64,000 nt of DNA from an uncultured bacterium (lineage in GTDB: Bacteria; Patescibacteriota; Minisyncoccia; UBA6257; GWB1-50-10): assembly GCA_903827975.1 (NCBI GenBank), contig CAIKKG010000001.1, positions 26,175 through 90,174 on the forward strand. The letters are read 5' to 3'. The notes below the pieces were generated by a model. That model was not told the DNA's origin. It worked only from the letters and a program-made list of their open reading frames with translations, and did not search any database. Within the stretch, counting starts at the first letter, position 1, and the number at the start of each line of letters is the position of its first letter. Positions 6,948 to 43,722 of this stretch are shown one piece after another. The position numbers and the translations under genes are program-made.

Positions 6948-7952
6948 ATGTTTATACGAAAAATCGGCATTGATCTTGGAACTACAAATACATTGGTTTT
7001 CTTGCCTGAGAAAGGCATCGTTATAAACGAGCCTACTGTTGTGGCGCTCAGAAAGCCAGATAACACAGTGCTTGCTGTTGGGGCTGAGGCAAAGGAAATG
7101 GTTGGTCGCACACCTGATGATATAGTCACTTATCGTCCGCTTAAGGATGGAGTAATTGCAGAGTATTACATTACGCAGGCGATGCTCAAATATTTTATTT
7201 CAAAAAGCATAGGCTCTTTTAATATTATTCGTCCTGAGGTTGTAATCTCAGTACCTGCTGGAATAACGTCAACAGAACATCGCGCTGTTATGAATGCTGC
7301 AAAAGAAGCTGGTGCAAAAGAAGTCTATCTTGTAAAAGAACCACTACTCGCATCACTTGGTGCGGGAATTCCAATTCACTCAGCAGAAGGAAATATGATT
7401 GTAAATATTGGCGGAGGAACTACTGAGGTTGCTGTAATCTCACTCGGCGGAATTGTTACATGTTCAAGCTTGCGCGTTGCTGGAAATCGTTTTGACAATG
7501 CGATAAGTGAGTACATAAAGAAAAAGTATAACCTAGCGATAGGTGAGAATACCGCTGAGAATATAAAAATTACAATCGGAACAGCTATGCAGAATCGTAA
7601 TAAATTAGAGATGAAGATTCGCGGTCGCGACCTTCACTCCGGACTGCCTAAGGATATGATAATTAATTCTAATGAGGTTGCTGAGGCGATTAACGGACAT
7701 TTAGTGGATATTATGAATTCAGTTCAGGCAGTATTCAATGTGACACCTCCAGAACTAGCAGCTGATATTATGGAGAAGGGGATAATTCTCTCAGGTGGTA
7801 GCTCACAACTAAGAGATCTCGAGGAGTTCTTTAAGCGTTCACTTGGTGTGTCGGCATATGTTGCAGAGAATGCAATCCTATGTGTTGCAAACGGAACCGC
7901 AACAATCCTGAATCATTTAGATGTCTACAAGAGAACACTTTTGAGACGATAA
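6948..7952 (+). CDS. mreB: MreB/Mbl-family actin-like protein (paralog 1)
   Basis: [18 protein letters not shown] phosphate-1 motif and full-length MreB architecture. Confidence 0.8.
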   Translation: MFIRKIGIDLGTTNTLVFLPEKGIVINEPTVVALRKPDNTVLAVGAEAKEMVGRTPDDIVTYRPLKDGVIAEYYITQAMLKYFISKSIGSFNIIRPEVVISVPAGITSTEHRAVMNAAKEAGAKEVYLVKEPLLASLGAGIPIHSAEGNMIVNIGGGTTEVAVISLGGIVTCSSLRVAGNRFDNAISEYIKKKYNLAIGENTAENIKITIGTAMQNRNKLEMKIRGRDLHSGLPKDMIINSNEVAEAINGHLVDIMNSVQAVFNVTPPELAADIMEKGIILSGGSSQLRDLEEFFKRSLGVSAYVAENAILCVANGTATILNHLDVYKRTLLRR

Positions 7953-12122: not shown

Positions 12123-13145
12123 ATGATATTAAAGAAATACATTGGAATAGATTTAGGAACCGACACAACGCAGATTTATTTAAAAGGCGTTGGAGTTGTT
12201 GTTAATGAGCCAACAATTGTTGCTTTTAATAACAGGACGGATCGCGTTGTTGCAGTTGGTACAGAGGCAAAGAAAATGCTTTCTCGTACGCCATCACACA
12301 TCACAGCAAGTCGTCCAATTAGTAACGGAGTAATTGCGGACTTTGATATGGTAAAAGAGATGCTTCAGCATTTTCTTAAAAATGAGAAAATCCCATGGTC
12401 CTGGATGACACACACAATCGTAAGCGTTCCAACAAACCTAACAGAGGTTGAGCGAAAGTCCGTTGAAGATTTATTGAAGGAGAGTGGCGCAAACTCGGTT
12501 CATCTAATCGAACAACCGCTCGCTGCGGCATTTGGAAGCAGGTTGGATATTAATCTACCGTCTGCGTTTTTGGTTGTAGACATTGGCGCTGGTACAACTG
12601 ACATGGCAATTATTTCAATGAATGGCGTTGTTGTTTCAAAACGTCTTAAGATAGCTGGAGATTTTCTTAATAATGAAATAATTAAGGGTGTGCGTGATGA
12701 ACTAAGGTTGCACATCGGAGAGCCGACAGCAGAAGAAATAAAAATTGCAGTTGGGTCAGCAATTCCAACGGGGGAGAGACTAGAAATAGTTATTCGCGGA
12801 CGCGATGTCGGAAATGGACTACCTAGAGAAATCGCTATTCGTGATACGCAAGTACGAATGTGGCTTGTTCGTCCGCTGAAGTTAGTAATTGAAGCGCTAA
12901 AAGATTTGATCGAGTCAGCCCCACCCGAGCTCGTTGGAGATATTTATAAGAATGGAATGTATTTTTGTGGCGGTGGGAGTTTATTGCGTGGCATAGATCA
13001 GGTTGCTGAAAAGGAAATCGGAGTTAAGGTGCAAATAGTTGAGGATCCACTGGCTTGTGTTGCGCGCGGAACCGGCCTAATTTGCGAACATTTTGAAGAG
13101 CACAAACAGTTGCTTAATAATTTTTCGCGATTGAAGTTAAATTAA
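12123..13145 (+). CDS. mreB: rod shape-determining protein MreB (paralog 2, encoded with mreCD-mrdA)
   Basis: GIDLGTDTTQIY N-terminus with MreB-like core; followed directly by mreC, mreD and PBP2. Confidence 0.85.
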   Translation: MILKKYIGIDLGTDTTQIYLKGVGVVVNEPTIVAFNNRTDRVVAVGTEAKKMLSRTPSHITASRPISNGVIADFDMVKEMLQHFLKNEKIPWSWMTHTIVSVPTNLTEVERKSVEDLLKESGANSVHLIEQPLAAAFGSRLDINLPSAFLVVDIGAGTTDMAIISMNGVVVSKRLKIAGDFLNNEIIKGVRDELRLHIGEPTAEEIKIAVGSAIPTGERLEIVIRGRDVGNGLPREIAIRDTQVRMWLVRPLKLVIEALKDLIESAPPELVGDIYKNGMYFCGGGSLLRGIDQVAEKEIGVKVQIVEDPLACVARGTGLICEHFEEHKQLLNNFSRLKLN

Positions 13146-20135: not shown

Positions 20136-20936
20136 ATGCCACATTTTTCTGAACCAAATGAAATGCTTACACCTTCTAAGCGAAAGATAAGAAGGCGTCA
20201 TCTAATTATTTTTTGGTCAATATTTTTGACGTCAGTTTTTATTATTAGTGCGACCGTTTATTTTGTATTTTTTTCCCAAATAATCAAGGTTCAAAAATTC
20301 TCAATAGACGGCAATAGGGTAGTGGGGAGAAGCGAACTTGAGGAACTGATAATAAAGAAACTTAATTCAAGGGGGTGGTTCGTAAGAAAAATAGGTGAGA
20401 ATAATATTTTATATTGGTTTGGGGTTAAGGAGATTAGGGATTCGGGAATTGCTGCAGCAGATGAGGTCCTTGTTCATACAAATCTAACAGACAGAACCGT
20501 AGCAGTTGAAATAAAAGAAAGGGTATTTGCTGGTATCTGGTGTGGGGATAGCTGTTTCGGATTCGACTCTAATGGGGTTGCATACTTTTTAGCGCCAGAT
20601 ACAGAGGGTTCACTAATACTAAAGATTAAGGATGAAAATAATGTGGGCCTAACTCTTGGACAACCAGTAATAGCAGACGAAAAAGTTCTTAGTAATATAT
20701 TTAAGACAATTGCAATAATAAAAGAAAACAATATTTTAATTGATGGGGTTACAATAAAGGACGCTACACTTCGTGAGTGGGAGCTAAAGAGCACGAAGGG
20801 AACGCAGTTTAAATTTAGTCTCGACTTTGTTCCTGATAAGTTAAAGAGCGTTATTGATAATCTCAAAGGTAGGACAAAACTAGAGGCATTAAATTATATA
20901 GATTTTAGGGTACAGAACAGGGTCTACTTTAAGTAA
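20136..20936 (+). CDS. ftsQ: FtsQ/DivIB-like cell division protein (transmembrane + POTRA + beta domain)
   Basis: Basic N-terminus, a single transmembrane segment, IDGNRVV POTRA-like start, and the VAVEIKERVFAGIWC motif typical of FtsQ. Confidence 0.5.
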   Translation: MPHFSEPNEMLTPSKRKIRRRHLIIFWSIFLTSVFIISATVYFVFFSQIIKVQKFSIDGNRVVGRSELEELIIKKLNSRGWFVRKIGENNILYWFGVKEIRDSGIAAADEVLVHTNLTDRTVAVEIKERVFAGIWCGDSCFGFDSNGVAYFLAPDTEGSLILKIKDENNVGLTLGQPVIADEKVLSNIFKTIAIIKENNILIDGVTIKDATLREWELKSTKGTQFKFSLDFVPDKLKSVIDNLKGRTKLEALNYIDFRVQNRVYFK

Positions 20937-20942
20937 TGTGTT

Positions 20943-21782
20943 ATGATTAATATATTGAAGTGGTTTAAGCAATACATTATGGATGAGAGAGGGGGCTTTA
21001 CATTAGTTGAGCTTCTTCTTTATGCTGTAATTTTTGCAATTAGTTCGGTATTTCTTGTAAATATTCTGACATCCATAACACAGACAGAGGTAAGACAGAA
21101 TTCAATAAATGGCGTGAGTCAGCAGGTATCATTTGTTGCAGACACAATTCAGCGCATTGTGCGTCAGTCTAGTCTTATAGAAAATCCTGCGGGGGTTGCA
21201 AGCACAACGCTCGCTCTTCGTATGACCTCAACCTCGACAGACAGAACATCTATTTATATGGATGCTTCTTCAACCGGAATATTTTTGAAGCAGATTGATG
21301 CGAATGGTATTACAAATATAGTTCCTCTTACAGATAGCAGTGTTACGGTCGGAAATTTTTCAGTTACTAAATTCGAACCTGCTGGTGGCCAGGCGATAGT
21401 TAGGGTTGATTTAACATTGAATTACAATACGGCCGTTGAACGCGCAAAGGTTGCGCGAACCTGGAGCGGTGCAATTTCAAGAATATCCGCGGCAACTTTT
21501 GATTCAACTCTCACACCTAACTCCACAAACACGTACGACCTTGGAGGCTCTGGGTATCAGTGGAAGAACGGGTTTTTTTCAGGGAATGTTTCCATATCTG
21601 GAAACATAGGTCTTGGTGGAGCGGATCCTGCAGCAACAACGGCAAAGATTAAATCGAGTGGAGATATTATGGTAACGAACTCAGCATCTGGACTAATACT
21701 CACAGCATCCAACGGTTCATGTTTTAGAATAGGTGTTAGTACTGCTGGAGCGCTAACAACCTCAACTGTATCCTGTCCGTAA
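20943..21782 (+). CDS. type IV pilin/pseudopilin-like protein with an unusually long (17 aa) leader
   Basis: Prepilin cleavage/methylation motif G|FTLVELL (Glu at +5) followed by a hydrophobic helix. Confidence 0.65.
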   Translation: MINILKWFKQYIMDERGGFTLVELLLYAVIFAISSVFLVNILTSITQTEVRQNSINGVSQQVSFVADTIQRIVRQSSLIENPAGVASTTLALRMTSTSTDRTSIYMDASSTGIFLKQIDANGITNIVPLTDSSVTVGNFSVTKFEPAGGQAIVRVDLTLNYNTAVERAKVARTWSGAISRISAATFDSTLTPNSTNTYDLGGSGYQWKNGFFSGNVSISGNIGLGGADPAATTAKIKSSGDIMVTNSASGLILTASNGSCFRIGVSTAGALTTSTVSCP

Positions 21783-28674: not shown

Positions 28675-29166
28675 ATGAAAACAAAAGCACAAAAATTATC
28701 ACAAATAGAAGCAGGTGCAAAAGAACTTAAGACAAGTCAGACGGTGGTAATCACTGATTTCACAGGTCTTACAGCGAACGAGTTAAATGCGTTCCGTAAA
28801 GAAGTCTTTGCGCTTGGCGGTACAATGAGCGTTATTAAAAAACGTCTCTTGAAATATGTGTTTGAGAAAGAGGGAATAGAGTTTGATCCTAAACAATTTG
28901 AAGGCCAGACCGGTGTCGTATTTTCTCCAAAAGATATGGTGGAAACTGCGGGTACTGCGTATAAATTTTCAAAGCAAAATAAGCTTTTCAAAATTCTTGG
29001 CGGATATGAGGTTAGCGAGAAGAAGTTTGTTCCTGCGACTGAGGTTGTAATGATAGGACAGTTGCCTTCAAGAGAGGTTCTCTTGGGTCAGTTGGTCTAC
29101 ATGCTTGGCAGCCCAATTCGCTCATTTCTCTATGTATTAAGTGAAAAGTCGAAACAAACAAAATAA
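28675..29166 (+). CDS. rplJ: 50S ribosomal protein L10
   Basis: Characteristic L10 N-terminus (KAQKLSQIEAGAKELKTSQTVVITDFTGLTANELNAFRKEV). Confidence 0.9.
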   Translation: MKTKAQKLSQIEAGAKELKTSQTVVITDFTGLTANELNAFRKEVFALGGTMSVIKKRLLKYVFEKEGIEFDPKQFEGQTGVVFSPKDMVETAGTAYKFSKQNKLFKILGGYEVSEKKFVPATEVVMIGQLPSREVLLGQLVYMLGSPIRSFLYVLSEKSKQTK

Positions 29167-29172
29167 TTAACT

Positions 29173-29532
29173 ATGGAAAAATTTAACGATATTATCACAA
29201 AGGTTGAATCAATGTCTGTATTGGAACTTTCAGAATTGGTAAAAGCTTTGGAGGAGAAGTTTGGAGTATCTGCGGCTGCTATGGCAGTTGCCGGTCCTGC
29301 AGCAGCTGTTGCAGAAGAGAAGACATCTTGGGATGTAGTTCTCACAAGCGGCGGAGAGCAGAAAATCAACGTCATCAAAATCGTGAAGGAAGCAACTGGA
29401 TTGGGACTCAAGGAGTCAAAGGATCTAGTTGATGGAGCTCCGAAGGAGGTGAAGAAAGGATTGAAGAAGGAAGAGGCAGAAGAGTTGAAGAAGAAGCTCG
29501 AAGATGCAGGAGCAGTAGTAGAACTCAAGTAA
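29173..29532 (+). CDS. rplL: 50S ribosomal protein L7/L12
   Basis: N-terminal dimerisation helix, Ala-rich hinge and C-terminal domain ending ...GAVVELK. Confidence 0.9.
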
Positions 29533-39955: not shown

Positions 39956-40150
39956 ATGTCAAATATTATTGAACGAATGAGAGTGTTTTGGCAGGAGTCA
40001 CGCCAAGAACTTAAAAGGGTAAATTGGCCAACGCGCGAAGAGACAATTCGCTACACATTATTTGTGGTGGGATTTTCAATTTTCTTTGCGATATTTTTGG
40101 GCATAATAGATTACGGATTCGTAAGAATACTTGAAAAAATAATCTCATAA
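39956..40150 (+). CDS. secE: preprotein translocase subunit SecE
   Basis: 64 aa with a single C-terminal transmembrane helix; immediately upstream of nusG. Confidence 0.7.
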   Translation: MSNIIERMRVFWQESRQELKRVNWPTREETIRYTLFVVGFSIFFAIFLGIIDYGFVRILEKIIS

Positions 40151-40153
40151 TTC

Positions 40154-40711
40154 ATGAGCGAAAAAAAAGAACAAATGATTAATCACGAGCGTCGCTGGTA
40201 TGCGGTGCATACGTATGCCGGATACGAGGACGCTGTCTCTCGCTATCTTAAACAACGCGTAGAATCGATGTTTATGTCAGATAAAATCTTTAATGTCATT
40301 GTTCCTAAAGAAACAAAGATTAAGGTTAAGGGCGGAAAGCGCTACACAATAGAAGAGAAGACATTCCCTGGTTATGTATTAGTTGAGATGATATTGGATC
40401 ATGATTCATGGTCAGTAGTCCGAAACACACCACGCGTAACAGGATTCGTTGGTTCAGATAGTACGACACCAACACCACTTTCAGACGAAGAAATTAAATC
40501 ACTTCTCATGAAAATGAGTGGAGAGGAGACAAAGTACACAATCGATATTAAGGTGGGTGAGATAGTAAAGATTACAGACGGTCCATTTAAGGAGCAGGAG
40601 GGCAAGGTTGCTGATATTGATGAGGAGCATGGTAAGGTAAAGGTCTTGGTTCCAATCTTTGGTCGCGACACACTTCTTGAGCTAGACTCATTGCAAGTAC
40701 AGAAAATTTAA
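40154..40711 (+). CDS. nusG: transcription termination/antitermination factor NusG
   Basis: NGN domain (WYAVHTYAGYE) and a C-terminal KOW (VGEIVKITDGPFKEQEGKV). Confidence 0.9.
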   Translation: MSEKKEQMINHERRWYAVHTYAGYEDAVSRYLKQRVESMFMSDKIFNVIVPKETKIKVKGGKRYTIEEKTFPGYVLVEMILDHDSWSVVRNTPRVTGFVGSDSTTPTPLSDEEIKSLLMKMSGEETKYTIDIKVGEIVKITDGPFKEQEGKVADIDEEHGKVKVLVPIFGRDTLLELDSLQVQKI

Positions 40712-40727
40712 GGTATAAAATAACTCT

Positions 40728-41153
40728 ATGGCGAAACCGATAAAAACAGTATTAAAACTCCAGATTGAGGCGGGAAAGGCAAATCCAGCGCCTCCGATCG
40801 GACCTGCACTTGGTCAGCATGGTGTAAATATCCAGCAGTTCTGTCAGCAGTTTAATGCTGCAACGCAGGAGATGGTTGGGGATATCATTCCAGCTGAGAT
40901 AACCATTTACGAGGACCGCACATTTGATTTCAAATTGAAGACATCTCCTTCCTCAGCTCTTTTGAGAAAGGCTGCGGGAATTGCAAAGGGTTCAGCAACA
41001 CCACAATCAGTTAAGGTTGGTAAGGTGACGCGAGCACAGCTCCGCGATATCGCAGAGAAGAAGATGATTGATCTGAATGCGAATGATGTTGAGGCTGCGA
41101 TGAAAATCATCGAAGGCAGCGCTCGTAATATGGGAATTGAAATAGTAGACTAA
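40728..41153 (+). CDS. rplK: 50S ribosomal protein L11
   Basis: Canonical L11 N-terminus ([34 protein letters not shown]). Confidence 0.9.
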
Positions 41154-41154
41154 G

Positions 41155-41180
41155 AAAAAGACCCGAAAGGGTCTTTTTTT
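41155..41180 (+). terminator. rho-independent terminator after rplK (GACCC-GAAA-GGGTC followed by T7)
   Basis: Perfect stem and T-run; notable because rplA/rplJ do not follow. Confidence 0.6.
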
Positions 41181-41243
41181 AATTTACGTATTCTTATTTT
41201 TAAATATATATATGTTAAACTAAATTAAATAACCTCAATCAAC

Positions 41244-43319
41244 ATGAACTCAAGAAGCAAAGCAGGATTCACATTGGTTGAACTCCTTATTGTAATCGCA
41301 ATTCTCGCAATACTTTCGGTCGCGGCAATCTTAGTTATAAACCCAGCACAACTCCTAAAGCAGGGAAGAGATGCCACTCGTCTATCTGATATGGCTGCTC
41401 TTAACTCAGCTCTCGCGCTTTACAATACTGACGCAGCTAACGGTTTCATGGGAACTTCAACGTATATTTATGTTTCAATTCCTGACTCCAGTCCAACGTG
41501 TGCAAATCTCGGTCTACCAACACTTCCAAGTGGTCAGTACAGTTGTGTTGCCTCCTCAACTCTCAGAAAGACTGATGGCACGGGATGGGTTCCTGTGAAT
41601 TTCAGTAGTCTAACATTTGGAAATCCATTACCGAATCTCCCTATCGATCCAATTAACGCAACTTCAACTGGAACATACTACACATACGCAGGAGGAAGCT
41701 GGGCCCTTTCTGCTGTTATGGAATCCACCAAGCAGGCCGTTGTAATGGCATCTGACGGAGGACGAAGTGCATACGCATATGAGGTTGGCTCTAATCTTAC
41801 GCTTACTCCAACATCAACACTTAGAAGGGCGATGCCAGTTGTTGCTCTTACAATAAACGCACCAGCACTTACAACATCAAAGGTGTATGACGGAAACACA
41901 TCTGCTGTGGTTGCTGCTGGCACACTTTCCGGAGTTGCAAGTGGAGATGTGGTTACAGTGTCTGCAACTGCAACTTATAATTCAGCTACAATCGAAACAG
42001 GAAAAACAATCACGGTTGTATATACGCTCGGAGGAGCTGACGCCGCTCAATATTCAGCTCCAACAAATTATGTTGTAAATACGGGCGCAATTACAACCGT
42101 TCAGTTATCAATAGGTAATCCAACAATTACAACATCAAAGACATATGACAGGACTACGTCCGCCGGGGTTACTGCTAGCACGCTTTCTGGAGTTGCTAAC
42201 GGTAATACAGTTACGGTGTCCGCAACTGCAACGTATGATTCAGCATCTGTTGGCACAGGAAAAACAATAACCGTTGTATACACATTGGGAGGTGCAAATG
42301 CATCGAATTATACGGCTCCAACAAATTATGTTGTTAATACTGGAGTTGTTTCAGCCATAGAACTACAAATAGGTAGCCCAACGGTCACAACATCAAAGAC
42401 ATATGATGGCACAAAATCCGCTGCGGTCACTGCTGGTTCACTCACGGGAGTTATTAGTGGTGACACGGTTACAGTATCCGCAACCGCAACATATGATTCA
42501 GCATCTGTTGGAACTGGAAAAACAATAACCGTTGAATATACATTGAGCGGAGCGAGTTCTGGAAATTATTCAGCTCCAGGAAATTATATTTTGAATACTG
42601 GAATAATAGTTTCAAATATTGCTAACACAACTTGTAAGGCAATTTTGGATGCTGGTTCTTCTACTGGTAGCGGCGTCTATACAATAGATCCGAATGGAGG
42701 TTCGAATGCTGACGCATTTCAGGCGTATTGCGATATGACTACTGATGGCGGTGGATGGGCGCTTGTGGCATTACCAACTGATTCGTACAGCATTTTTAGT
42801 GAGCCAACGGGTCTTCTCGATCCTACGGCATCGCTTGGAGCAAGAAATTCAAATTATTGGAGCTCGGGTTCAACAAATACATTTACTCAGATTAGATTTA
42901 CTGACTCTTGGCCTTCTCGCTCGTATTATGATATCGCGACGTTTGGTTCAGCTGTATCAATGTCGAGTCTCATGACTTCCTACCCAACATATTCTCAGTA
43001 TCCAGTAGCAACAACAAATATATCATCAAGTATTGGGTCAACATGCTTCATAGTTAGGGGGAAGAGTTCCGCTGATATGCAATGGAGTGACGGAGCCGAT
43101 TGGTTATTTATGGGATTCCATTCTCTTTGTTCGGTGCCAATATCCAATACAGATGCTTGGGATGTGTACAGTTACTCCAATCAGTGGGTGGTAGGCGCGA
43201 GAGATAACAGTGGCGATCCACAAAGTAACCCAACGGCTGTCGGGCGCATGACGGGCGGTTGTCATTGGAACGCAAATTCCTGTCCAGCAACAAATAGAAC
43301 CATAATCTGGGTTAGATAA
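41244..43319 (+). CDS. large type IV pilin-like protein with three tandem YDG-type (MBG-like) repeats and a C-terminal fibrinogen-related domain; candidate pilus-tip adhesin
   Basis: Prepilin motif KAG|FTLVELLIVIAILAIL; three about 82 aa repeats (TTSKVYDGNTSA...TITVVYTLGGA...YSAPTNYVVNTG); C-terminus GVYTIDPNGGSNADAFQAYCDMTTDGGGWALVA matches the fibrinogen C-terminal domain signature. Confidence 0.6.
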   Translation: MNSRSKAGFTLVELLIVIAILAILSVAAILVINPAQLLKQGRDATRLSDMAALNSALALYNTDAANGFMGTSTYIYVSIPDSSPTCANLGLPTLPSGQYSCVASSTLRKTDGTGWVPVNFSSLTFGNPLPNLPIDPINATSTGTYYTYAGGSWALSAVMESTKQAVVMASDGGRSAYAYEVGSNLTLTPTSTLRRAMPVVALTINAPALTTSKVYDGNTSAVVAAGTLSGVASGDVVTVSATATYNSATIETGKTITVVYTLGGADAAQYSAPTNYVVNTGAITTVQLSIGNPTITTSKTYDRTTSAGVTASTLSGVANGNTVTVSATATYDSASVGTGKTITVVYTLGGANASNYTAPTNYVVNTGVVSAIELQIGSPTVTTSKTYDGTKSAAVTAGSLTGVISGDTVTVSATATYDSASVGTGKTITVEYTLSGASSGNYSAPGNYILNTGIIVSNIANTTCKAILDAGSSTGSGVYTIDPNGGSNADAFQAYCDMTTDGGGWALVALPTDSYSIFSEPTGLLDPTASLGARNSNYWSSGSTNTFTQIRFTDSWPSRSYYDIATFGSAVSMSSLMTSYPTYSQYPVATTNISSSIGSTCFIVRGKSSADMQWSDGADWLFMGFHSLCSVPISNTDAWDVYSYSNQWVVGARDNSGDPQSNPTAVGRMTGGCHWNANSCPATNRTIIWVR
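41862..42600 (+). repeat. three tandem about 246 bp coding repeats inside the pilin-like gene
   Basis: Near-identical protein repeat units visible in the translation (aa about 207-452). Confidence 0.6.
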
Positions 43320-43362
43320 AATAATTTTAATTTTTTCTAATATAATTTTTCTACTAGTGTAT

Positions 43363-43388
43363 AAAAAAACGCCCGATGGGCGTTTTTG
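43363..43388 (+). terminator. terminator after the pilin-adhesin gene (CGCCC-GAT-GGGCG followed by T5)
   Basis: GC hairpin preceded by A7 and followed by a T-run. Confidence 0.55.
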
Positions 43389-43414
43389 ACAAAGCTGGTG
43401 GTAAGCGTTATTTT
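43386..43414 (+). promoter_or_regulatory. sigma70-like promoter (TTGACA-17-TATTTT) for the small Cys-rich gene and tmk
   Basis: Consensus -35 overlapping the terminator T-run; GGAGGA RBS 7 nt before the GTG start at 43450. Confidence 0.45.
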
Positions 43415-43449: not shown

Positions 43450-43722
43450 GTGAATAAAATTGTTTTATCTGATTATGGCGATGCAACGCATCATAGCTTC
43501 GCAGACGATTATAAGCTAGTTGATAGAATAGGGAATCACAATAAATGTGGTGGTGAGATGTGCATCATTCCAATTCACACACGCAGGATAATCTTGTGTT
43601 ATAAATGTGGATGGATGAGTGACGTATTGCAAAGCAATGTAAAAACAATCGGGGCACTAAGAGATTATTTTTGGTGCTACAATAATAAAATAGGAGGAAC
43701 TGATGAGCAACAAGAAAAATAA
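43450..43722 (+). CDS. small Cys-rich (zinc-ribbon-like CxxxxC...CxxC) hypothetical protein, GTG start, translationally coupled to tmk
   Basis: 90 aa; CGGEMC...CYKCGW; strong RBS; 3' end overlaps the tmk start by 20 nt. Confidence 0.45.
   Translation: MNKIVLSDYGDATHHSFADDYKLVDRIGNHNKCGGEMCIIPIHTRRIILCYKCGWMSDVLQSNVKTIGALRDYFWCYNNKIGGTDEQQEK

Follow-up and report, generated by a model that had tools for sequence, protein, structure and literature searches.

Gene and domain organization of the locus

The stretch analysed here, hereafter the window, is 64 kb of contig CAIKKG010000001.1 from a member of Candidatus Jorgensenbacteria (Paceibacteria/Parcubacteria), a lineage that belongs to the candidate phyla radiation (CPR). 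Its GC content is 40% and its content consists of housekeeping genes, among which lies an intact open reading frame (ORF) on the + strand (41244..43319, stop codon included) with a 691-aa product. This product is a modular type IV pilin that consists of four parts: (i) a class III (prepilin) signal peptide; (ii) a pilin module; (iii) three YDG repeats; and (iv) a C-terminal domain similar to fibrinogen-related domains (FReDs) and intelectins (hereafter the FReD/intelectin-like head). At least 13 contigs, assembled independently from several samples, encode the same protein, either identical or with the single substitution A420V.

All parts are encoded on the + strand. The class III leader peptide MNSRSKAG (residues 1–8; 41244..41267) can be read directly and is covered by N_methyl and TIGR02532 matches, with cleavage predicted at G8/F9. 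The mature pilin module (residues 9–187; 41268..41804) comprises a hydrophobic α1N segment with E13 at position +5, a long α1 helix and a β-sheet globular domain with C86 and C101. It is followed by a linker (residues 188–201, TPTSTLRRAMPVVA; 41805..41846), placed where stand-alone paralogues stop (at about residue 187) and where the predicted local distance difference test score (pLDDT) falls to 60–73. Three tandem YDG repeats (residues 202–287, 288–373 and 374–455; 41847..42608), recognised by Pfam PF18657 and by Tandem Repeats Finder (TRF), have a period of 86 aa or 258 nt. The FReD/intelectin-like globular head occupies the C-terminus (residues 456–691; 42609..43316) and contains a YCDxxxxGGGW core (residues 463–508; 42630..42767) with an invariant C464...C496 pair, which is matched by NF040941 and partially by PF00147 and PF01410.

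Raynaud et al. (2021) define a modular pilin as a pilin module joined to an independently recognisable non-pilus domain, and the product combines N_methyl with three YDG repeats and a Fibrinogen_C/GGGWT_bact domain. It does not belong with the non-pilin tip adhesins of the PilY1/PilC type: a class III signal peptide is present and the Pfam search gave no match to the PilY1 β-propeller.

The pilin module and the type IV pilus locus of the same genome

An earlier note on this DNA had recognised a prepilin motif, KAG/FTLVE. Both G8/F9 and E13 (+5) are readable in the translation, and N_methyl (residues 4–29, E = 3.6e-8, 33.1 bits, cut-off 21.2) and TIGR02532 (E = 3.2e-7, 29.9 bits, cut-off 16.3) agree with this assignment. 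The protein keeps the canonical Gly at position -1, which in many homologues of this CPR pilin family is replaced by Ser or Ala (e.g. ...RRS/FTLIELL and ...SS/FTLVELL).

Residues 1–187 form a complete pilin, more than a motif. The AlphaFold model of the module, based on 129 homologues (pLDDT 93.1), has a 50-residue N-terminal helix followed by a β-sheet, i.e. the 'lollipop' of pilins in which a hydrophobic α1N of ~20 residues extends into a long α1 helix on an antiparallel β-sheet. A search with the module returned 798 relatives, of which 128 were aligned; stand-alone pilins (~180–200 aa) make up 57 of these 128, and the rest have C-terminal extensions.

One stand-alone relative, P0443, is encoded on the contigs that also carry the gene, where it comes last in a tandem array of three pilin genes (186, 187 and 185 aa). 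The array opens a type IV pilus (T4P) locus that continues directly with a PilB-type ATPase (MshEN + T2SSE), a PilC-type platform protein (T2SSF) and two further proteins, of 393 aa (N_methyl + Laminin_G_3) and 466 aa (LamG). In ERZ4200879, contig NODE_40 has the T4P locus at ~44–49 kb and the pilin–YDG–FReD gene at 111.9–114.0 kb, ~66 kb away. The locus corresponds to L006 8619..16229 of the same genome, where the 466-aa protein is of the Toxin_R_bind_N + LamG type. The ~70 nt upstream of its first two pilin genes are the same in both, suggestive of a recent tandem duplication; in GCA_026396755.1 these two genes are called as shorter ORFs of 119 and 124 aa.

The module of the 691-aa protein is 51–54% identical from end to end to the three T4P-locus pilins and nearly identical to them over residues 8–60. 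The α1 helix, which in pilins drives polymerisation, is likewise nearly identical to theirs. Furthermore, the ends of the T4P-locus pilins coincide exactly with the start of the linker in the 691-aa protein. We therefore describe the protein as a subunit of the major-pilin type that is extended at its C-terminus by 500 residues. Of the 'tip adhesin' of the earlier note, the pilin fusion is supported but the placement at the tip is not, since the module is a paralogue of major-pilin-type subunits rather than of minor pilins that form a tip complex. Modular pilins are thought to be located at the tip owing to steric clashes (PMC8179133); here, however, the module resembles the major subunits and the YDG stalk might relieve such clashes. 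The subunit may lie at the tip or elsewhere in the filament.

Alternatively, the pilin-like N-terminus could be no more than a membrane anchor, or part of a short pseudopilus, from which stalk and head project from the envelope as in a conventional stalked adhesin. We regard this as rather unlikely. The gene is indeed an orphan at a distance of 66 kb from the pilus locus, the head subfamily is found mostly on ordinary Sec-secreted stalk proteins, and the 500-aa extension is bulky, steric clashes having been seen on modelling of a modular pilin within the body of the filament (Raynaud et al.; PMC8179133). However, near-identity to the T4P-locus pilins over residues 8–60 and conservation of the whole globular module exceed what a mere anchor would be expected to need, and the modular pilins tested so far enter pili (PMC8179133, PMC11623550).

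Immediately behind an FtsQ-like ORF (20136..20936), the window contains a second orphan prepilin-like ORF (20943..21782, +; 279 aa, ...ERGG/FTLVELL, N_methyl E = 2e-4), which shares only 23% identity with the pilin module described here and represents a different pilin type.

The YDG repeats

Pfam YDG (PF18657) matches the protein in three stretches (E = 2.5e-44, 149.9 bits, cut-off 25), and TRF finds 2.7 copies with a period of 258 nt. Three YDG-type repeats had been proposed earlier as near-identical units of about 82 aa. Their number and type are borne out, but the period is 86 aa (258 nt) and the copies are 66–72% identical in protein and 69–76% in DNA. The nearest relatives of the repeats are in surface proteins of many phyla, including SLH-anchored proteins of Paenibacillus, haemagglutinin-annotated proteins and CPR proteins with peptidoglycan-binding domains. 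The repeats would form a rigid, β-rich stalk.

The FReD/intelectin-like head

The fibrinogen signature reported earlier for the C-terminus is real, as NF040941 and Pfam Fibrinogen_C both score above their cut-offs. NCBIfam NF040941 ('fibrinogen-like YCDxxxxGGGW domain') matches residues 463–508 with E = 6.2e-19 (67.8 bits, cut-off 30). Fibrinogen_C (PF00147) reaches 28.7 bits (cut-off 22) and covers only profile positions 4–48 of 221, and a partial COLFI (PF01410) match is also present. The head has the FReD A-subdomain signature C...YCDMxxxGGGW with its disulfide pair. A full-length FReD match (~220 residues, with the B and P subdomains) was obtained neither with the Pfam profile nor with profile A4, which was built from the 16 sequences of the close head subfamily and searched against the PDB.

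The structural model points to the overall FReD fold. The C-terminal 242 residues, modelled from an 86-sequence alignment, have a pLDDT of 70.9 and a predicted template modelling score (pTM) of 0.77, and the 50 best Foldseek matches are all FReD proteins (probability ~1.0). The best structural match is the glycan-binding intelectin-1. At the sequence level, a broad and heterogeneous profile of the bacterial family (A1) reaches the whole tenascin-R FReD (E = 7e-18), and the best A4 match is XEEL (6.4e-12). The head is FReD/intelectin-like in its fold and A subdomain, and the remainder is strongly diverged.

Ten residues are invariant in the subfamily: C464, C496, D616, D619, W639, D640, W648, D654, W675 and W689, where C464 and C496 are C15 and C47 of the domain numbering. 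Two further Cys pairs, C601/C629 and C673/C680, are optional, each pair being present or absent together, which implies that they form disulfides. The string GGCHWNANSCP had been likened to the ligand-binding subdomain of FReDs, a comparison that finds no statistical support: A4 aligns this region to tenascin 'KGAWWYKNCH' only at a negative score, and the two Cys of the string occur in just 4 of the 16 subfamily members, with W675 invariant. 'RDNSGDP' and 'GGCHW' as ligand-site motifs are manual suggestions in a region without significant alignment.

The bacterial YCDxxxxGGGW family is large, with 4,199 representative clusters at E <=1e-3. Close relatives of the head form the C-terminus of proteins that have ordinary signal peptides and either Ig-like stalks (Big_9, Invasin_D3, Filamin), LamG or DUF4842 domains, and one, P0248, is carried by an unrelated pilin. 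Such a C-terminal placement is typical of binding heads. The ~50-aa YCDxxxxGGGW sub-domain alone is present, in as many as 15 copies, in many giant bacterial proteins (P0217–P0365; up to 5,517 aa). This indicates that the sub-domain also exists as a repeat in its own right, separate from the remainder of the FReD-like fold.

Relatives and payload variety

The full architecture is shared only with P0002, a 609-aa protein of another organism (51% GC contig) that is 68% identical and has the same pilin–YDG–head layout with two YDG repeats. It also answers the question, raised earlier, of whether orthologs retain the pilin N-terminus: P0002 keeps it, in a genomic context different from that of the gene described here. 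Stalkless pilin–head fusions occur on other pilin modules (P0112, P0131, P0140, P0203, P0204, P0207, P0211 and P0248).

The same carrier module elsewhere bears other payloads, i.e. Laminin_G_3, FGE-sulfatase, BNR/Sortilin propeller, CBM_4_9 and TIG as well as Fibrinogen_C. The closest case is P0046 (L005 180..1724, scaffold_2937) from the same metagenome, which has a pilin module 80% identical in amino acids and a BNR/Sortilin β-propeller payload. At the DNA level, the two genes are 76% identical across the pilin module and the 38 nt before the ATG; the similarity ends at about residue 192, where the BNR propeller stands in place of the YDG–FReD part. P0046 thus looks like a payload-swapped paralogue. 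We rejected the idea of alternative payload alleles at one locus, as P0046 and P0002 lie in other contexts and relatives have no gene at this site.

These payloads bear on what the head might bind. A pilus-displayed head could instead recognise a protein, a mineral or polymer surface or sister cells (in aggregation, biofilm formation or nutrient capture), or be mainly structural, rather than act as a host-glycan lectin; we judge this quite improbable. It is consistent with (i) the protein-binding animal FReDs (fibrinogen, angiopoietins and tenascin) among the top matches; (ii) the canonical sugar- and Ca2+-binding subdomain, which is unrecognisable by sequence; and (iii) the near-invariance of the protein across samples, A420V being the sole variant, which gives no sign of diversification within the population. 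By contrast, intelectin-1 as the best structural match and XEEL as the best A4 match favour glycan binding, as do the sister payloads on the carrier, most of which are carbohydrate-binding folds (LamG/ConA-like, CBM_4_9 and BNR). Moreover, the invariant residues D616, D619, D640, D654, W639, W648 and W675 would fit a site composed of Ca2+ ligands and aromatic sugar contacts.

Genomic context and insertion of the gene

The gene lies between rplK and the hyp90–tmk unit. Scanning one genome per species with the NusG of the window gave 29 loci of relatives. About 20 of the 29 keep the order VTT–gyrB–secE–nusG–rplK–(hyp90)–tmk–gatB...miaA, and none of these ~20 has a gene between rplK and hyp90/tmk. 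In the two nearest genomes, L009 and L012 (NusG 95% identical), the ~100-bp spacer consists of the rplK terminator followed by a TTGACA promoter-like site. In the junction alignment, the left flank matches up to the rplK terminator and the right flank from 'TTTTGACA' onward. Therefore, ~2.2 kb (41181–43387) was inserted in this lineage.

The inserted segment has the form of a cassette (41181..43387, +) that contains an AT-rich promoter/leader, the gene and its own terminator, and it is absent from the related genomes. Its left boundary is the intrinsic terminator of rplK (41154..41180, +), a hairpin of GAAAAAGACCC-GAAA-GGGUCUUUUUU (-14.5 kcal/mol, z -4.76) that is orthologous to the post-rplK terminator in L009 and L012. 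The AT-rich 5′ region (41181..41243, +), read directly, is a putative promoter/leader with no clear Shine–Dalgarno sequence, and its last 38 nt belong to the segment shared with the P0046 gene. The right boundary is the intrinsic terminator of the gene itself (43365..43387, +; -13.4 kcal/mol, z -3.74). Next to it, a consensus scan located the TTGACA-17-TATTTT promoter-like site of the hyp90–tmk unit (43386..43414, +), which is pre-existing and orthologous to that of L009 and L012, with 'TTTTGACA' conserved in the junction alignment.

The two hairpins, which no shuffled sequence matched in folding, uphold the earlier description of the gene as monocistronic with terminators on both sides. A consensus scan that gave no + strand terminator near the gene was set aside because direct reading and folding yield two clear hairpins. 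We found no integrase or transposase ORF at the insertion, and direct or inverted terminal repeats and target duplications were limited to chance matches in AT-rich sequence. The Rfam scan of the window returned five tRNAs only, with no RNA element near the gene.

It had also been suggested that the gene is inserted into the ribosomal cluster after rplK. Insertion is supported by the relatives without the gene, but disruption of the cluster is not, as rplK is followed by tmk–gatB in ~20 relatives. The cluster split thus predates the gene and is ancestral in the group, and we rejected the gene as the cause of a break in an E. coli-type ribosomal cluster. In the window, rplJ–rplL lie at 28675–29532, 12 kb upstream of secE–nusG–rplK (39956..41153); in the flanks searched, rplJ–rplL were found in 0 of the 29 loci. 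A Pfam scan of essentially all ORFs of >=100 aa detected no rplA in the 64-kb window, which fits the L1 loss documented for a Parcubacteria subgroup (bioRxiv 10.1101/2022.01.07.475337).

The composition of the gene also differs slightly from that of its surroundings. Its GC content is 44% versus 40% for the window, and over 41250..42500 the GC skew within the gene is about zero or negative, compared with +0.1 to +0.3 for neighbouring genes on the + strand. Both features are compatible with recent acquisition or simply with a Thr/Ser/Ala-rich composition.

A non-functional or chimeric gene, produced by an assembly artefact or left as a decaying recent insertion, would agree with its absence at this site from all ~20 related genomes and with the slightly raised GC content and unusual skew. 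Nevertheless, we find this explanation extremely improbable: the intact ORF is the same on the at least 13 independently assembled contigs, the gene has its own promoter-like leader and terminator, and a different organism has an ortholog of the same architecture. A sequence rich in Thr, Ser, Ala and Gly may by itself account for the shift in composition.

Two other features of the window are mentioned for completeness. The ORF at 43450..43722 (+) encodes a 90-aa Cys-rich protein (...HNKCGGEMC...CYKCGW...) with zinc-ribbon-like spacing and no Pfam match; it overlaps the start of tmk by 20 nt and is conserved between rplK and tmk in L009 and L012 (43–57% identity). There are also two MreB paralogues (6948..7952 and 12123..13145), the second followed by MreC and a PBP2-type transpeptidase.

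Proposed function and mechanism

We consider it fairly probable that this modular type IV pilin acts as a pilus-borne binding subunit for a host cell or substrate. Adhesin function, lectin activity and host attachment are properties that we infer from the architecture and its relatives. In the proposed mechanism, (i) prepilin peptidase would cleave the precursor after G8; (ii) the subunit would enter the same type IV pilus as the T4P-locus pilins via the PilB/PilC machinery, either infrequently or when assembly begins; (iii) the YDG stalk would keep the head away from the filament; and (iv) the head would attach to the host cell or substrate through a ligand on its surface, most likely a glycan or an acetylated sugar. 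The organism probably lives attached to other cells, and the pilus could then serve as its grappling line.

Several points weigh against this proposal. The head model is of moderate quality, with four segments below a pLDDT of 50, and its Foldseek TM-scores are just 0.27–0.43. Only the first ~50 residues of the head resemble canonical FReDs in sequence, and profile A4 is significantly similar to animal FReDs and XEEL over the first ~55 residues only (positions 9–73), so that a canonical Ca2+- and acetyl-binding site in the head is no more than putative. Animal FReDs also include protein binders (fibrinogen, angiopoietin and tenascin), and a lectin is not the sole option. The Pfam scan described above detected no pilus machinery in the window, the machinery being located instead via the paralogue P0443. 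No PilD gene was found in the window or in L006, the parts of the genome that were searched. Finally, the proposal presumes expression, processing, pilus incorporation and ligand binding, and a host-associated lifestyle is assumed from general knowledge of the CPR.

The occurrence of the carrier with other payloads, together with the lineage-specific insertion, makes the family look like a set of exchangeable adhesin cassettes. A more far-reaching scenario, which we put forward as possible yet doubtful, is that a single Paceibacteria/Jorgensenbacteria pilin carrier takes interchangeable heads (FReD/intelectin-like, LamG, FGE-sulfatase-like, BNR propeller or CBM) and is moved in promoter–gene–terminator cassettes to arbitrary intergenic sites. 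Head swaps would then set host range in the manner of phage receptor-binding proteins, and the FReD-like head would be a bacterial X-type lectin for host envelope glycans.

Comparison with known systems and significance

Modular pilins were defined by Raynaud et al. (2021), with 264 architectures and with Streptococcus sanguinis PilB (vWA) and PilC (ConA-like lectin) as examples (PMC8179133, PMC9934059). The PilB module was shown to mediate adhesion, and adhesion was proposed for modular pilins generally (PMC8179133). The protein described here likewise joins a pilin module to an extra domain; it differs in its three-repeat YDG stalk, in its full-size module, which is paralogous to putative major pilins instead of being a small minor pilin, and in belonging to a CPR bacterium.

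The earlier note knew of no described fusion of a pilin with a FReD, which turns out to be incorrect. Dataset S1 of Raynaud et al. (2021) lists IPR012902-IPR002181, a pilin joined to a fibrinogen C-terminal domain, in 8 proteins and IPR012902-IPR013545-IPR002181, with one more domain, in 2, and NCBI names pilin-bearing YCDxxxxGGGW proteins in Ca. Pacebacteria. In the paper texts searched, we found nothing relevant on the pilin–FReD combination, bacterial FReD/intelectin homologues or YDG adhesins; of the literature searched, only the supplementary table of Raynaud et al. (2021) has the architecture. Among NF040941 (GGGWT_bact) proteins, which have the same YCDMTTDGGGW core, several start with a prepilin motif (the Ca. 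Pacebacteria proteins P0131 and P0140, together with P0112, P0204, P0207, P0211 and P0248), but these have no YDG stalk and mostly have another pilin module and another C-terminal half of the head.

In Saccharibacteria (TM7x), the minor pilins PilX1 and PilX2 have lectin-like C-terminal domains (a β-jelly-roll and a 7-bladed propeller). Experiments have linked both to host binding, which is efficient only if PilX2 is present and in which glycans of the host are implicated (PMC11623550). These are likewise CPR pilins with lectin-like C-terminal domains. The protein described here differs from them in payload fold (FReD/intelectin-like) and in phylum-level lineage (Paceibacteria). Furthermore, PilX1 and PilX2 have no predicted PilD signal peptide, whereas the 691-aa protein has a textbook one, and the PilX genes lie inside pilus loci, whereas the present gene is an orphan insertion. 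CofB of the type IVb pili of enterotoxigenic E. coli has the same pilin–stalk–head layout (PMC8179133), but it is part of a diderm T4b system, its stalk and head have unrelated folds and its sequence shows no similarity.

A further comparison concerns the head itself. Animal FReD and X-type lectins are terminal recognition heads on oligomeric stalks and bind microbial glycans or acetyl groups. Intelectins (X-type lectins) recognise exocyclic diols, with the ligand-binding Ca2+ held by their C-terminal half. The present head shares the A-subdomain signature, the disulfide and the overall fold with them (intelectin-1/XEEL, ficolins, tachylectin-5A and FIBCD1), but it is shorter at the C-terminus, has no significant similarity past the first ~50 residues and is carried by a pilin instead of a collagen-like or coiled-coil stalk.

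What is new here is the combination of a major-pilin-like carrier, a YDG stalk and a FReD-like head, together with its cassette-like insertion; the modular-pilin principle and the simpler pilin–FReD fusion were already known. To our knowledge, how ultrasmall CPR bacteria outside Saccharibacteria recognise and attach to their hosts is largely unknown. The protein is no new kind of system, and it provides a concrete, clonable candidate for host recognition in a Paceibacteria lineage. If its head binds glycans, the modular-pilin principle would extend to the fibrinogen/intelectin-like fold, the widespread, uncharacterised bacterial YCDxxxxGGGW family would gain a first functional handle, and cassette gain of the kind found between rplK and tmk would become a candidate mechanism for shifts in host specificity.

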